Positions 37,417 through 42,543 of a stretch of 64,000 nucleotides of DNA are shown here, piece by piece. The number at the start of each line of letters is the position of its first letter. Within the stretch, counting starts at the first letter, position 1. The DNA comes from Candidatus Dormiibacterota bacterium (lineage in GTDB: Bacteria > Chloroflexota > Dormibacteria > Aeolococcales > Aeolococcaceae): assembly GCA_963718525.1 (NCBI GenBank), contig OY970355.1:1184001-1248000 (forward strand). The letters are read 5' to 3'. The notes under the pieces are model-generated. The model had not been told where the DNA came from, ran no database searches, and worked only from the letters and a program-made list of their open reading frames with translations. A program made the translations under genes and the position numbers.

Positions 37417-38460
37417 GTGCGAGCGCTCGTGTTCACGGACTTCGGCGCCATCGAGATTGCAGACGTGCCGAAACCGGGCCTCGAGGAGCCCGGTGATGCG
37501 TTGGTCCGTGTCACCAGAACCGCAATCTGCGGCAGCGACCTGCACGTGCTGCATGGACGGATTCCCGGAATGACCGCGGGCGGCGTTCTCGGGCATGAGT
37601 TCGTCGGTGTCGTCGAGGCCGTGGACGGCCTCGTGACCCGTGTCAGGGAGGGCGATCGAGTTGTCGGCTCGTTCACGATTCCCTGCGGCAGTTGCTGGTA
37701 CTGCGCGCGGCGGTTGTTCAGCCGGTGCCCGGATCAGCGCGTCTTCGGATACGGCTCGTTCTTCGGCGACGTCGCCGGCGCCCAGGCGGACTACGTTCGG
37801 GTGCCGAATGCCGACCTCGTCCTGCACGGCATTGACAACTCGATGAGCGACGAGCAGGCGCTGTTCGTCGGTGACATCTTCACCACCGGGTACGACTGCG
37901 CGAGTGAAGCGCGAATCGAACCGGGAGACGTCGTCACAGTGGTCGGATGCGGACCCGTCGGCCTCATGGCGATCCTCGGGTCACGTCGCTTCGAGCCCTC
38001 GACGATCTATGCCGTCGACACGGTGTCGCATCGCCTGGAAATGGCACAGACCCTCGGCGCGGTGCCCGTCGACGCGAACGACGTCCACGTCCCGAGCTTC
38101 GTCCAGGATCGCACCGGGGGCCGCGGCGCCGACGCCGTCCTGGAGTGTGTCGGGCTCGTTCCCGCGCTGCTCGACTGCCTCGACATCGCGCGAGCCGGCG
38201 GACGGATCAGCGTGATCGGTGTGCACAGCGACCAGGAGCTAGCGCTGCCACTCAACATCACATTCATCAAAGCCATCGACCTGAAGTTCTGCGGCACCGC
38301 CAACATCATCGGCAGATGGGACGACGCCATGGCGATGGTGACGAGCGGCGTCGCGCACCCTGACGCAATCATCTCGCACCGGCTGCGACTGGAGGACGCG
38401 GTGCTGGGCTACGAGTTGTTCGAGCGGCGCGAGGCGCTGAAGGTCGTGCTCACCCCGTAG
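37417..38460 (+). CDS. Zn-dependent alcohol/formaldehyde dehydrogenase family protein
   Basis: ICGSDLH, GHE, structural Zn site CGSCWYC...C, DIFTTG and GCGPVG. Confidence 0.92.
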   Translation: MRALVFTDFGAIEIADVPKPGLEEPGDALVRVTRTAICGSDLHVLHGRIPGMTAGGVLGHEFVGVVEAVDGLVTRVREGDRVVGSFTIPCGSCWYCARRLFSRCPDQRVFGYGSFFGDVAGAQADYVRVPNADLVLHGIDNSMSDEQALFVGDIFTTGYDCASEARIEPGDVVTVVGCGPVGLMAILGSRRFEPSTIYAVDTVSHRLEMAQTLGAVPVDANDVHVPSFVQDRTGGRGADAVLECVGLVPALLDCLDIARAGGRISVIGVHSDQELALPLNITFIKAIDLKFCGTANIIGRWDDAMAMVTSGVAHPDAIISHRLRLEDAVLGYELFERREALKVVLTP

Positions 38461-38480
38461 GGACGGCGTTTCGCGCTTTG

Positions 38481-38542
38481 TGGTGCCATTCTGGCCCAGG
38501 ATGGCTTGACATGGCATCAACTGTGGTGTCATAGTGGCGTCA
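38481..38542 (+). promoter_or_regulatory. Promoter with four TGGYRYCA boxes; probable leaderless transcript
   Basis: TTGACA at 38506, 18-bp spacer, CATAGT at 38530, ATG 6 bp later. Boxes TGGTGCCA (38481), TGGCATCA (38512), TGGTGTCA (38524) and TGGCGTCA (38535). Confidence 0.7.
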
Positions 38543-39072
38543 TGGATCTACGCCCCTTCGTCGACAGCATTCATCAACAGCTCGCCGATGCGGCCGACGC
38601 CGGCGGAGACGAGGCACGCGCCCTCGCCGAACGCCTTGCGGCGCCGCTCGACGCTGCCATCCGTCTGGCACTACAGGACGCGCTGGCAGCGGCAGCGGCC
38701 GAGATCACCTCCGAGCTCGCACCCGGATCCGTCGAACTCCGTCTCCGGGGACGCAATCCGGAATTCGTCGTCACGCCGCCGCCGGCGGAATCGGCTGCCG
38801 GCGACTTCGCCGGCACGCGCTATGACGGCGCGACATCTCCGGGACCGTTCGGCTCCGAGGACGTCGAGGACGGTGGGATGTCGCGCATCAATCTGCGCAT
38901 GCCCGAGCACCTCAAAGCACGGGTCGAGCGGGCCGCAAGCAGCGAGGGAGTCTCGGTGAACAGCTGGCTGGTTCGAGCCGCAGGTTCGGCGCTTGATCGA
39001 GTCGAATCGGGTCGCCGCCGCGATGGGCGCGCCGCCCCGGGACCAGGACGCTTCACGGGCTGGGTTCGCTAG
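38542..39072 (+). CDS. Ribbon-helix-helix (HicB-C-terminal-like) regulatory protein
   Basis: RINLRMPEHLKARVERAA..EGVSVNSWLVRA RHH, AAAEITSELAPGSVELRLRGR and C-terminal FTGWVR. Confidence 0.8.
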   Translation: MDLRPFVDSIHQQLADAADAGGDEARALAERLAAPLDAAIRLALQDALAAAAAEITSELAPGSVELRLRGRNPEFVVTPPPAESAAGDFAGTRYDGATSPGPFGSEDVEDGGMSRINLRMPEHLKARVERAASSEGVSVNSWLVRAAGSALDRVESGRRRDGRAAPGPGRFTGWVR

Positions 39073-39098
39073 CCCGTCCATATCAGAGGAGAGACTTC

Positions 39099-39977
39099 AT
39101 GCCCACTTTTGCAACCCCCGCCCCGATCATCGTCACCCTCGACATCGGCGTCGGCGACATCCGGATCACCGCGAGTAATCGGGCCGAGACCACAGTCGAG
39201 GTCCGACCAACCAACCCCGCGAAGCAGGCCGATGTGGCCGCTGCCGGGCAGACCCGAGTCGAGTTCTCCGACGGGCACCTCCAGATCAGGGGACCGAAGG
39301 GCTGGCGGCGCTACTCGCCGATCGGGCCCAAGGAATCGATCGATGTGCAGATCGAGCTTCCCGAGGGCTCGCAGCTTCGCGGGGAGGCCGGTATTGCCGC
39401 GTTGCACGGCGCCGGCACGCTCGGCGAATGCAAGTACACAACGGGCGTCGGCGACATTCAGCTCGATCGGACGGGTCCTGCACACCTCAGCACCGGGGTC
39501 GGCGACGTCTCGCTCGATCGCGCAAGTGGCCGCGCCCAGATCAGCTCCGGATCCGGCACCGTTCGAATCGGCACCGTGGACGGGACCGCGGACGTCAAAG
39601 GCGCCAATGGCGACACCTGGATCGGCGACGTCTCGCAAGACCTCAGGATCGTCTCCGCCAATGGGTCGATCTCCGTCGGCCATGCGCACGCAACCGTCGT
39701 CGCCAAGACCGCGAATGGGGACATTCGCATCGGCGACGTCGAGAGCGGGACAGTCGTCGCCAACACCGCGCTTGGCAAGGTCGAGATCGGGATTGGGCCC
39801 GGCGTCGCCGCATGGCTGGATCTCGACACGCATTTCGGCAAGGTGCACAACGAACTCGACGCGGCGGGGCCACCAAAGCCAGGCGAGCGAGCCGTCGACG
39901 TCCGCGCCCGCACGTCCTTCGGCGACATCACCGTGCACCGCGCCGTGACGGTCGGGACTGAGGCGGGCGTGGGATGA
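39099..39977 (+). CDS. DUF4097 family beta-strand repeat protein
   Basis: MPTFATPAPI start and repeated T..GD(I/V) units ending in RTSFGDI. Confidence 0.88.
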   Translation: MPTFATPAPIIVTLDIGVGDIRITASNRAETTVEVRPTNPAKQADVAAAGQTRVEFSDGHLQIRGPKGWRRYSPIGPKESIDVQIELPEGSQLRGEAGIAALHGAGTLGECKYTTGVGDIQLDRTGPAHLSTGVGDVSLDRASGRAQISSGSGTVRIGTVDGTADVKGANGDTWIGDVSQDLRIVSANGSISVGHAHATVVAKTANGDIRIGDVESGTVVANTALGKVEIGIGPGVAAWLDLDTHFGKVHNELDAAGPPKPGERAVDVRARTSFGDITVHRAVTVGTEAGVG

Positions 39978-40933
39978 ACGCCATCAACCGTGCACCGGCG
40001 GTCCAGGTCGCCGGACTGCGCAAGGCATTCGGGAGCAAGGTGGTCCTTGAAGGCATCGACCTCGAGATCGCCGAAGGGTCGGTGTTCGCGCTGCTCGGCC
40101 CGAACGGCGCCGGCAAGACCACCACCGTCCAGATCCTCTCGACACTCATCCGCGCCGACGCCGGCGTGATGCGCGTCGGAGGCTTCGATGTCAGCGCTGA
40201 TCCCGACAAGGTTCGGCGGGCAATCGGCGTCACCGGGCAGTTCTCTGCCGTGGATTACATGCTGAGCGGCAGGGAAAACCTGCTGCTCATGGCGAACCTG
40301 AATCACCTGGACCGGCAGAGCGGGCGCCGGCAAGTCGACGAGTTGCTCGACCGGTTCGACCTGGTCGAGGCAGCCGGACAGATGGCGCTCAAGTACTCCG
40401 GAGGCATGCGGCGCCGCCTTGATCTCGCCATGACCCTGCTCGGCGATCCGCGGATCATCTTTCTCGACGAGCCGACGACCGGCCTCGATCCGCGGAGCCG
40501 CCACACGATGTGGCAGATCACGCGTGAGCTCGTGGCCGGGGGTGTCACCATCCTGCTCACCACCCAGAACCTGGAGGAGGCGGACCAGCTCGCCGACCGC
40601 ATCGCCGTCCTCGACAAGGGTCATCTGGTTGCCGAAGGCACGCCCGACGAGCTCAAGCAGCGCATCCCGGGTGGCCGGGTGCTGCTGCACTTTCGTGATG
40701 CCGGCGCGCGGACCAGCGCCGCGGCGCTGCTGGGACATGCATCGGTCGCCGACGAAGCGCTCGTCCTCGAGATTCCGACGGACGGCACGCCGGAGTCGCT
40801 CCGAGCCCTCCTTGATCGGCTTGACGGGGCCGCGTTGGAAGTCGAGCGAGTGAGCGTGCAGACACCGGACCTCGACGACGTGTTCTTCGCGCTCACGGGC
40901 GCACCCCATCAATCAGCAGAGGCAACGAGATGA
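39974..40933 (+). CDS. ABC transporter ATP-binding protein (DrrA-like)
   Basis: GPNGAGKTT, YSGGMRRRLDLA and FLDEPTTGLDP. Confidence 0.95.
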   Translation: MNAINRAPAVQVAGLRKAFGSKVVLEGIDLEIAEGSVFALLGPNGAGKTTTVQILSTLIRADAGVMRVGGFDVSADPDKVRRAIGVTGQFSAVDYMLSGRENLLLMANLNHLDRQSGRRQVDELLDRFDLVEAAGQMALKYSGGMRRRLDLAMTLLGDPRIIFLDEPTTGLDPRSRHTMWQITRELVAGGVTILLTTQNLEEADQLADRIAVLDKGHLVAEGTPDELKQRIPGGRVLLHFRDAGARTSAAALLGHASVADEALVLEIPTDGTPESLRALLDRLDGAALEVERVSVQTPDLDDVFFALTGAPHQSAEATR

Positions 40934-41721
40934 GCACTCCGGCATATGCGCTGCGCGATTCGACAACCATGCTGCGACGCGACCTGCGTCACGCCGTGCG
41001 GTATCCGCTCCTGTCGGTCAGCGGTTTGCTGGTGCCGGTGTTTCTCCTGCTGCTGTTCGTGGGGGTTTTTGGCAACACGCTGCTGGCAGGGCTCGGCGCG
41101 GCTGCACCTGCCGGAGGCCACTACATCGACTTTCTCGCTCCCGGCATCCTCGTCATGACCGTAGGCGCCAGTGCAGCGGCGACCGCGATCAACGTCTGCA
41201 TCGACATGAACGAGGGAATCGTCGCCCGCTTTCGCACCATGGCCATCAGCCGGACCTCGGTTCTGACCGGCCAGGTGCTCGGAAGCCTGATCAGAACCAT
41301 GATCAGCGGCGTCCTCGTCGTCGCCGTTGCGATCGGCCTCGGTTTCCGGCCGACCGCCGCACCGCTCGAGTGGGTTGGTGCCGCCGCCCTGTTCTCACTC
41401 CTGATCCTCGCGCTCACCTGGCTGGCCATCGCCATCGGCCTACAGGCAAAGACGCCTGCCGGCGCGAACAGCCTGTCCCTGATCCCGCAGTTCCTCCCGT
41501 TCATCAGCAGCGCGTTCGTGCCGACGGCCTCGATGCCCGCGGGAGTGCGGTGGTTCGCCGAGAATCAGCCGTTCACCCCCATCATCAATGCGATTCGAGG
41601 GCTGCTCACCGGCACGCCGATCGGCAACGCCGCTGTCATTGCGGTGGCGTGGTGCGTGGGACTGATGCTCGTCGGCTACGTGGTGTCGCGTGCCCGGTAC
41701 GACCGCTATGTGACGCGGTAG
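40930..41721 (+). CDS. ABC-2 type transporter permease (DrrB-like)
   Basis: Six TM helices, YIDFLAPGI, GIVARFRTM, SSAFVP..SMP and NQP.T. Confidence 0.92.
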   Translation: MSTPAYALRDSTTMLRRDLRHAVRYPLLSVSGLLVPVFLLLLFVGVFGNTLLAGLGAAAPAGGHYIDFLAPGILVMTVGASAAATAINVCIDMNEGIVARFRTMAISRTSVLTGQVLGSLIRTMISGVLVVAVAIGLGFRPTAAPLEWVGAAALFSLLILALTWLAIAIGLQAKTPAGANSLSLIPQFLPFISSAFVPTASMPAGVRWFAENQPFTPIINAIRGLLTGTPIGNAAVIAVAWCVGLMLVGYVVSRARYDRYVTR

Positions 41722-41756
41722 CCTGCACCCAATTTCGATATGCAAGGAGAGTGGAC

Positions 41757-42278
41757 GTGGCTGGTGATCAGGCAAGCGAAGCCGACGACGAGATGCTCCG
41801 GGACTTTCTCCGCGGCCAGCGCGAATCGGTGCTGGCGATCGTCGACGGGCTCGACGAGGAGGCGTGGCACCGCTCCGTCGTGCCCACGGGCTGGACGCCG
41901 GCCGGACTGCTCGAGCATCTGGGCGGCGCCGAGTGGCACTGGTTCCAGGGCGTCGTGGCGGGCAAGGAGCCGGAGCTGCCAGGCGACCTCGCCGAGGATC
42001 AGCCGCCGTACGACCCCATGACCGTGGTGTTCACAACCGACGCGCCCTCGGCGGAGGTCGTCACGTTCTACCGCGACCAGTGCGTGCAGTCCGAGGCGGT
42101 GCTGGCGGCAACGCCATTGTCGGCGCGGCCGTTGGGTAAGCACGGGCTTGGCGAATTCGAACCACCGAATGTTCGTTGGGTCGTGTTGCATATGATCGAG
42201 GAGACTTCGCGGCATGCCGGGCATCTGGACATCGCGAGGGAGCTGCTCGACGGCAGGACCCGTCTGGGTGGCCGCTGA
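41757..42278 (+). CDS. DinB/DUF664 family protein
   Basis: QRESVL, GLLEHL...E.HWF and RWVVLHMIEETSRHAGHLDI.RE..DG. SD AAGGAG lies upstream. Confidence 0.88.
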   Translation: MAGDQASEADDEMLRDFLRGQRESVLAIVDGLDEEAWHRSVVPTGWTPAGLLEHLGGAEWHWFQGVVAGKEPELPGDLAEDQPPYDPMTVVFTTDAPSAEVVTFYRDQCVQSEAVLAATPLSARPLGKHGLGEFEPPNVRWVVLHMIEETSRHAGHLDIARELLDGRTRLGGR

Positions 42279-42314
42279 CGTGCCCAACGTCCTTATTTGT
42301 GAATGAATTTGGCG

Positions 42315-42390
42315 TGGTCCCAGGGGATGGAGTCGAACCATCGGTACACGGTTTTACAGACCGCTGCCTTGACCACTTGGCTACCCTGGG
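42315..42390 (-). tRNA. tRNA-Tyr (GTA), 76 nt, C1:G72, short variable loop, CCA encoded
   Basis: Minus strand reads CCCAGGG TA GCCAAGTGGTCAAGGC A GCGGT-CTGTAAA-ACCGT GTACC GATGG-TTCGACT-CCATC CCCTGGG A CCA. Confidence 0.92.
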
Positions 42391-42543
42391 ACGTAGGATT
42401 CGGATGAGCGCTGCGCAATACCCCGGTAGACCCCGGCCTGCGCGCTTGGGATCCTGCGCCGGCATTGCCTGCCAATAGTAGCCAGGACTATTGTTCGTGC
42501 GATGCAGCGGACGGCTTTGAGCAGCGGCCCATCGAATTCGGCG

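Follow-up and report, generated by a model that had tools for sequence, protein, structure and literature searches.

An archaeal-type tRNA-Tyr and tyrosyl-tRNA synthetase as the probable sole tyrosine pair of a Dormibacteria soil bacterium

Introduction

The first base pair of tRNA-Tyr is a textbook identity rule dividing bacteria from archaea and eukaryotes, and it is the basis of the orthogonality of archaeal pairs in Escherichia coli. The subject of this study is a tRNA-Tyr gene with the archaeal/eukaryal first pair in a 64,000-nucleotide stretch of the genome of a Candidatus Dormiibacterota bacterium (assembly GCA_963718525.1, contig OY970355.1, positions 1,184,001 to 1,248,000; hereafter the window), together with the tyrosyl-tRNA synthetase (TyrRS) encoded elsewhere in that genome. 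C1-G72 has been named as a defining feature of archaeal and eukaryal tRNA-Tyr identity, and in published structures this pair is read by conserved Arg and Lys residues of the archaeal and eukaryal TyrRS (Tsunoda et al., 2007, PMC1934993; Giege and Eriani, 2023, PMC9976931), namely Arg174, Lys175 and Arg132 in the Methanocaldococcus jannaschii enzyme (PMC1934993). The inverted first pair is the probable reason why bacterial pairs are not cross-charged (PMC1934993, PMC9976931).

The closest described system is that of Mukai, Reynolds, Crnkovic and Soll (2017; Life 7:8, PMC5370408), who found archaeal tRNA-Tyr identity in Candidate Phyla Radiation (CPR) bacteria. As in the present case, bacterial hosts carry an archaea/eukarya-type TyrRS and a C1-G72 tRNA-Tyr, the enzyme is related to TyrRS of DPANN archaea, and lateral transfer was inferred (PMC5370408). 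The hosts described there were Parcubacteria, Microgenomates, Dojkabacteria and Katanobacteria, whereas the host here is one of the Dormibacteria, a 3.34-Mb soil bacterium outside the CPR. Many of the CPR tRNA-Tyr keep the variable arm (PMC5370408), which is gone in the window tRNA, and the survival of the bacterial pair in sister genera of the same family is a feature of the Dormibacteria case. In the parts of that paper covered, an operon is described for a tRNA-Trp/TrpRS-A pair and none is stated for the Tyr pair. The terms Chloroflex, AD3 and Dormibacter do not occur in its main text (PMC5370408), and its supplements may list more taxa. A literature search that lay mostly outside subscription journals and supplements yielded no paper on an archaeal-type TyrRS or a C1-G72 tRNA-Tyr in either Dormibacteria or Chloroflexota. 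With Dormibacteria a known phenomenon gains a further lineage, along with a boundary within one family and a tRNA-synthetase gene unit.

Three further systems serve for comparison. The M. jannaschii TyrRS/tRNA-Tyr, the standard orthogonal pair in E. coli, likewise belongs to the NF006330 family and has C1-G72 and A73 (PMC1934993, PMC9976931). Unlike that pair, the one described here is native in a bacterium, where it stands alongside tRNA-Pro with C1:G72 and A73, and its 375-aa enzyme resembles 2cyc_A, a chain of 375 aa, much more (403 bits) than it does the M. jannaschii chain 1j1u_A, of 306 aa (160 bits). With the canonical bacterial tRNA-Tyr/TyrRS (TIGR00234) it shares the GUA anticodon, A73 and its function; it differs in the inverted first pair, the missing long variable arm and an enzyme without the C-terminal arm-binding domain. 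Finally, E. coli has been engineered so that its own TyrRS/tRNA-Tyr is replaced by an archaeal pair (PMC2887954), a laboratory construct of which the Dormibacteria family appears to be the natural counterpart.

Results and discussion

The tRNA-Tyr gene of the window

Our reading is that the window gene is very probably the only working tRNA-Tyr of its genome, that tyrosine is charged there under the archaeal/eukaryal identity rule and that the native pair has been replaced. The gene was one of two tRNA genes predicted in the window by ARAGORN (anticodon gta; Table 1) and scored 67.2 bits with Rfam family RF00005 (gathering score 29; E 1.8e-12) over positions 42318-42390 of the minus strand. 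It encodes a tRNA of 76 nt in which the acceptor stem CCCAGGG/CCCUGGG gives C1:G72, followed by discriminator A73 and an encoded CCA. The D stem has 3 bp, the anticodon stem GCGGU/ACCGU carries the loop CUGUAAA (G34 U35 A36, A37), the variable loop is 5 nt (GUACC) with no long arm, and the T arm GAUGG-UUCGACU-CCAUC has a stem of 5 bp. Free-energy folding recovered the acceptor, anticodon and T arms at -28.4 kcal/mol (z -2.08). The tRNA thus has the whole archaeal/eukaryal tRNA-Tyr identity set of C1:G72, A73, GUA anticodon and class I shape, and neither G1:C72 nor the long variable arm of a canonical bacterial class II tRNA-Tyr.

An earlier note, made from the letters of the window alone, had described this cloverleaf (76 nt, GTA, C1:G72, A73, CCA, GTACC loop); all of these features are present, ARAGORN and RF00005 agree, and the sequence it gave without a strand is the reverse complement of the window, that is, a minus-strand gene. 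The note had also considered an assembly error in the first pair or anticodon. Such an error is excluded, since a gene with the identical first pair and anticodon occurs in 35 of the 41 genomes sampled from the family.

Table 1. Positions of the features discussed, in the window, on the single contig of the genome (C1) and in the numbered loci
Feature	Window	Genome	Locus or other genome	Strand	Evidence or remark
tRNA-Tyr(GUA), class I	42315..42390	C1:1226315-1226390		minus	ARAGORN, Rfam RF00005, fold
Archaeal-type TyrRS, 375 aa		C1:1980771-1981898	L001:2491-3618	minus	Outside window
Bacterial TrpRS, 338 aa				 	Convergent neighbour of TyrRS in the same genome; TIGR00233, 302.7 bits
TrpRS and TyrRS genes together		C1:1979751-1981898	L001:1471-3618		
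tRNA-Pro		C1:1301776-1301851			C1:G72 and A73
tRNA-Pro		C1:2177129-2177203			C1:G72 and A73
tRNA-Pro		C1:2799279-2799353			C1:G72 and A73
tRNA-Cys(GCA)		C1:2672873-2672946			
tRNA-Ser(cga), 99 nt		C1:206148-206246			ARAGORN; doubtful, starts TCAGGTG
tRNA-SeC		C1:2729774-2729868			ARAGORN
Truncated tRNA-Tyr, 5' 42 nt			L152, G427:C2:550668-550709		
Gene with homologues beside tRNA-Tyr in relatives	38001-38461				
Block between that gene and tRNA-Tyr	38461-42314				~3.85 kb

The host genome is a single contig of 3,336,189 bp (GC 66.3%), in which ARAGORN found 47 tRNA genes and a transfer-messenger RNA (tmRNA), with one tRNA-Tyr among them. A pattern covering both tRNA-Tyr classes had a single match, the window gene, and blastn revealed no second copy, the only full match being the tRNA-Tyr itself. 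When sister-genus long-arm tRNA-Tyr was used as the query in blastn-short, the genome yielded only fragments of 14-25 nt (E >=0.012), and beside its tRNA-Thr(GGU) only the tRNA-Thr aligned, giving no trace of a long-arm relic. Being the sole tRNA-Tyr gene of the genome, the window tRNA is taken to be functional.

The genome's only TyrRS is of archaeal type

The class Ic synthetase domain PF00579 occurs in two genes of the genome, those encoding TrpRS and TyrRS, and the latter lies 754 kb from the tRNA-Tyr gene. The TyrRS reached 395.1 bits with NF006330, whose cut-off is 220, but only 88 bits with the bacterial tyrS model TIGR00234, which has a cut-off of 113.8; at E<=1e-40 the genome contained no match to TIGR00234. 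As a control, NF006330 was above its cut-off in four of four archaeal genomes, that of M. jannaschii included, and in none of ten bacterial genomes. The best solved relative was 2cyc_A (E 1.2e-119, residues 5-360 aligned); TyrRS chains of other archaeal and eukaryal origin ranked next, those of M. jannaschii at E 1e-45. Of the 375 residues, PF00579 covered 33-351 and NF006330 1-363, and no other Pfam family matched. As these matches reach positions 351-363, the enzyme has no added C-terminal S4-like domain, which is the archaeal-type form that the earlier note had proposed to look for.

The enzyme contains the motifs H46-L-G-T (46-49) and K251-M-S-K-S (251-255) and the residues R191-K192 within GMDQRK. 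Residues H46, G48, R191, K192, R145 and R148 and the KMSKS motif were invariant in all 81 aligned sequences. R191-K192 and R145/R148 are putative counterparts of the residues that read C1-G72 in M. jannaschii. The TAC and TAT codons of the TyrRS gene fall on alignment columns that are Tyr in 81 of 81 rows (four columns), 79 of 81 and 60 of 81; as they stand on conserved Tyr columns, these codons still mean Tyr and the window tRNA must read them. T-box leaders at gathering score were absent from the 13 loci searched, which span both TyrRS types. The convergent TrpRS and TyrRS genes end 3 bp apart, and this neighbourhood recurs: CAVVJH010000006.1, CAVYGR010000003.1, CAVWEG010000004.1 and DATDID010000007.1 were each matched at overlapping ranges by both queries.

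With one tRNA-Tyr and one TyrRS, the latter archaeal-type, the native pair has very probably been replaced rather than joined by a second, orthogonal one, the other option that the earlier note had put forward. A second pair working beside a normal bacterial pair has some parallels, in that some CPR genomes hold tRNA-Tyr of two kinds or two pairs for Trp (Mukai et al., 2017, PMC5370408) and two genomes of the present family, G425 and G423, hold an additional long-arm tRNA-Tyr. It is nevertheless very improbable here, given a one-contig genome in which the single tRNA-Tyr among the 47 tRNAs and the single TyrRS are accompanied by neither a bacterial tyrS nor a long-arm relic, and a family in which none of 41 genomes holds both TyrRS types.

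The tRNA and its enzyme belong to a bacterium. The closest public records of the TyrRS (96-64% identity) were metagenome-assembled genomes (MAGs) labelled Candidatus Dormibacteria/Dormibacterota, then Chloroflexi, and the bacterial TrpRS independently led to Dormibacteria/Dormibacterota MAGs (88-75% identity) and then Chloroflexi, from which it follows that the host is a bacterium outside the CPR; the tmRNA and the bacterial TrpRS also mark it as bacterial. That the window might instead be archaeal, or come from a contaminated or mis-assembled metagenome bin, is hardly credible. The closest records are all MAGs and a few bear odd labels (Saccharimonadales, Binatia, Actinomycetes), but a tmRNA, a bacterial TrpRS and a set of bacterial tRNAs are all present in the genome, the tRNA-Tyr and TyrRS genes share the same 3.34-Mb contig, 34-35 of the 41 genomes of the family contain the pair, and the TrpRS beside the TyrRS is closest to Dormibacteria MAGs at 75-88% identity.

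In the replacement we propose, the genome's only TyrRS, lacking the C-terminal domain that binds a long variable arm, would select the window tRNA through C1:G72, A73 and the GUA anticodon. All three tRNA-Pro genes of the genome encode C1:G72 and A73 (Table 1), so those positions cannot separate Pro from Tyr; discrimination would have to use pairs 2:71 and 3:70 and the anticodon. How ProRS and TyrRS discriminate between such tRNAs is a testable question.

Distribution in family, class and phylum

The distribution of the two types was surveyed in samples of 301 genomes of the phylum (evenly drawn), 151 of the class and 41 of the window's own family; genomes, loci and genera are designated below by G, L and g numbers where they need to be told apart. 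Some of the genomes counted are marked as unpublished (G272 and G173, and in the phylum sample only G227, G145 and G038), and no claim hangs on these alone. In the phylum sample NF006330 was above its cut-off in 12 of 301 genomes, every one of them from the own family. In the class sample the archaeal-type TyrRS was found in 29 of 33 genomes of that family, the window's own genome excluded, and at the same cut-off in none of the 117 genomes of the other four families of the class (0/15, 0/43, 0/48 and 0/11).

Within the family sample, 34 of 41 genomes carried the archaeal-type TyrRS at E<=1e-40, 33 of them above cut-off and one as a fragment at a contig end, spread over at least 18 genera. A bacterial tyrS (E<=1e-40) was present in six genomes, of genera g3, g8, g174 and g195. 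None of the 41 had both types, and neither was found in G428, which is 85% complete. The short C1 tRNA-Tyr occurred in 35 genomes (33 by pattern, G339 and G427 by DNA search), that is, in the 34 holders of the archaeal-type TyrRS and in G428. A long-arm G1:C72 tRNA-Tyr was found in five of the six genomes with bacterial tyrS and not in the sixth, G418, which is 84% complete. In the sister genera represented by G224 and G083 it is 84-85 nt long, with G1:C72, discriminator A73 and a variable arm that forms a stem-loop, and adjoins tRNA-Thr(GGU); the sister bacterial TyrRS extend about 100 aa beyond the PF00579 match and match TIGR00234 as far as positions 400-404 of the 406 in the profile.

Enzyme type and tRNA type thus co-occur without exception where both were found, and they switch together within one family. 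The native pair, a bacterial-type TyrRS with a G1:C72 long-arm tRNA-Tyr, is accordingly kept in the sister genera and has very probably been lost in the lineage of the window. The combination of a canonical long-arm tRNA-Tyr and a bacterial TyrRS, which the earlier note had set against its own interpretation, is absent from the window's genome and present in those sister genera, a division that bears out its suggestion of a lineage marker.

The tRNA-Tyr genes of the family showed some further variation. G427 holds, about 13 kb from its full gene, the truncated copy listed in Table 1; the full genes of G339 and G427 (L149/L150) have one additional T-loop base (TTCGAACT); and G296 and G333, of the window's genus, have two tRNA-Tyr copies each, near contig ends. 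At position 37, A37 is typical of bacterial and G37 of archaeal tRNA-Tyr, and the opposite is seen here: the native long-arm tRNA-Tyr of G224 and G083 (L093/L098) has G37 (loop CUGUAGA) and the short one A37 (CUGUAAA, A36-A38). The only DPANN tRNA-Tyr recovered (L136) has G37.

A tRNA-TyrRS gene unit and the enzyme tree

In 14 of the 34 family genomes with the archaeal-type enzyme the tRNA-Tyr gene and the TyrRS gene share a strand, the tRNA being upstream at a distance of about 350 bp or less, and in two more it lies within 1.5 kb. A set of 80 public loci, each centred on a relative of the enzyme, included 23 with a C1 tRNA-Tyr within 3 kb upstream of TyrRS: 18 in the Dormibacteria clade, three in an Anaerolineae/Aggregatilineales clade, one in a Peribacteria bin and one in an unclassified bacterium. 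In the last (L075) an 84-nt C1 tRNA-Tyr with a long arm stands upstream of the archaeal-type TyrRS. The two genes were adjoining in none of 11 archaeal loci, and they are unlinked throughout the window's own subclade (22 loci and its own gene). That tRNA-Tyr stands directly upstream of TyrRS in numerous genera, and among other lineages of bacteria too, suggests that the two genes form a transferable unit.

A phylogenetic tree of the window genome's own TyrRS and the 80 locus proteins was calculated with IQ-TREE and left unrooted, with no outgroup. The 48 Dormibacteria-clade rows formed one side of a branch (support 99/95), which supports a single entry of the enzyme into the family, so far as the protein sequences can tell. 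Eleven DPANN archaeal rows, with a 4-kb contig labelled "bacterium", formed one side of another branch (99/89), and the TyrRS of other Chloroflexota fell into three further clades. In each of five such other Chloroflexota genomes with the archaeal-type enzyme, of which two are complete chromosomes, a C1/A73 short-loop tRNA-Tyr lies at a separate place in the genome, and none has a bacterial tyrS above cut-off.

The new pair would accordingly have come into the family in a single event, as a unit of two genes in which the tRNA stood directly upstream of TyrRS, from a donor that would itself have been another organism carrying an archaeal-derived pair. The genes would later have separated in the window's genus, where ~754 kb now lie between them. 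The direction from archaea to bacteria is suggested by the general distribution of the TyrRS family, and by that only.

Origin of the tRNA

The unit need not have brought an archaeal tRNA with it. It is possible, with a likelihood that we put somewhat below even, that an archaeal enzyme was joined by a converted bacterial tRNA, its first pair flipped and its long arm lost. Many C1-G72 tRNA-Tyr of CPR bacteria retain the variable arm and were judged to be of bacterial derivation (Mukai et al., 2017, PMC5370408). The long-arm C1 tRNA-Tyr of L075 would be in keeping with such a conversion, as would the A37, the encoded CCA and the 88.6% identity of the window tRNA to the genome's own tRNA-Cys(GCA) over positions 7-41, and the lack of a tRNA-Tyr beside TyrRS in the 11 archaeal loci. 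Against it, the DPANN tRNA-Tyr of L136 also has C1 and a short loop, GUAU, resembling the GUAUC/GUACC of the family, a single comparator without statistical power; and beyond generic tRNA positions the window tRNA has no obvious stretch in common with the sister long-arm tRNA-Tyr. The comparator was the one clean gene obtained by the tRNA-Tyr pattern in five DPANN genomes, and the phylum sample around it gave matches in 9 of 41, mostly chance-like. Within positions 7-41 the tRNA-Tyr and tRNA-Cys have the same D arm and similar anticodon arms; this likeness may be chance or a clue to the origin of the tRNA-Tyr. Both tRNA-Gln of the genome have a D-arm type in common with the tRNA-Tyr.

Points that weigh against replacement

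Several observations weigh against replacement as set out above, or against parts of it. The first group concerns the activity of the gene. Contigs from RNA libraries (four runs of four studies) contain exactly positions 42314-42391 with 0, 0, 0 and 1 differences; their flanks (9-255 nt) are unlike the window, so they stem from relatives with the same tRNA and leave transcription of the window gene unproven. As RNA-library contigs can contain DNA, the support that they lend to expression is weak. By marker genes, furthermore, the genome is 88.88% complete, despite being a single contig.

A second group concerns the history. G425 and G423 hold, besides the short tRNA-Tyr, a second, canonical-looking long-arm G1 tRNA-Tyr and no bacterial tyrS; in both, the extra gene (L108, G425:C38, and G423:C146) has the loop CUGUAAA. 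These two genomes could be transitional, with the remnant of a two-pair state. Contamination of the bins is a likely explanation, the G425 contig having a GC of 0.60 and no tblastx match to the window's genome. Unrooted trees without an outgroup leave the donor and the direction of transfer outside their support, and the case for one gain that was then inherited is built on the enzyme tree together with the outgroup families.

Significance of the replacement

Taken across lineages, the data lean, if only slightly, towards a two-gene unit of C1:G72 tRNA-Tyr and archaeal-type TyrRS that passes from one bacterial phylum to another and is able to replace the tyrosine identity rule of its recipient, as seen in Dormibacteria, in Anaerolineae/Aggregatilineales, in the Peribacteria bin and in others. 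If so, the swap has been caught at genus resolution in one Dormibacteria family, with sister genera on either side, and would offer a natural system for studying how a change of tRNA identity is survived and for finding two-pair intermediates. A free-living soil lineage outside the CPR with a switched rule and unswitched close relatives would provide a clean lineage marker and a natural experiment on the replacement of an essential tRNA/synthetase pair, in which candidates for transitional states can be searched for. The pairs would be mesophilic, bacterium-adapted and of archaeal type, already compatible with bacterial elongation factors, ribosomes and modification enzymes, and may serve as starting points for genetic-code expansion.

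Other tRNA genes and the surroundings of the tRNA-Tyr gene

The tRNA set of the genome includes, besides a normal tRNA-Ser(cga), the doubtful one listed in Table 1. Given its tRNA-SeC, the host probably uses selenocysteine.

In six relatives (G427, G428, G424, G342, G381 and G119) a homologue of the gene at window positions 38001-38461 is found no more than about 100 bp from the tRNA-Tyr 3' end. Between the two, the window has the ~3.85-kb block of Table 1, which contains open reading frames (ORFs) of 188 and 292 aa, the ATPase and permease of an ABC transporter, and a DinB-like ORF. The block looks like an insertion beside the tRNA; neither an integrase nor a repeat of the tRNA end was seen there. 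A scan for a promoter consensus close to the tRNA-Tyr gene yielded no site. GC content changes from about 0.66-0.70 before the tRNA-Tyr gene to about 0.61-0.65 over window positions 42001-64000, around a genome mean of 0.663. The first genes past 42 kb, named by reading their translations rather than by family search, seem to serve routine metabolic functions: they comprise the large subunit of a molybdopterin oxidoreductase, an amidohydrolase, an oxidoreductase of F420 type and 2-oxoacid dehydrogenase E2/E1.

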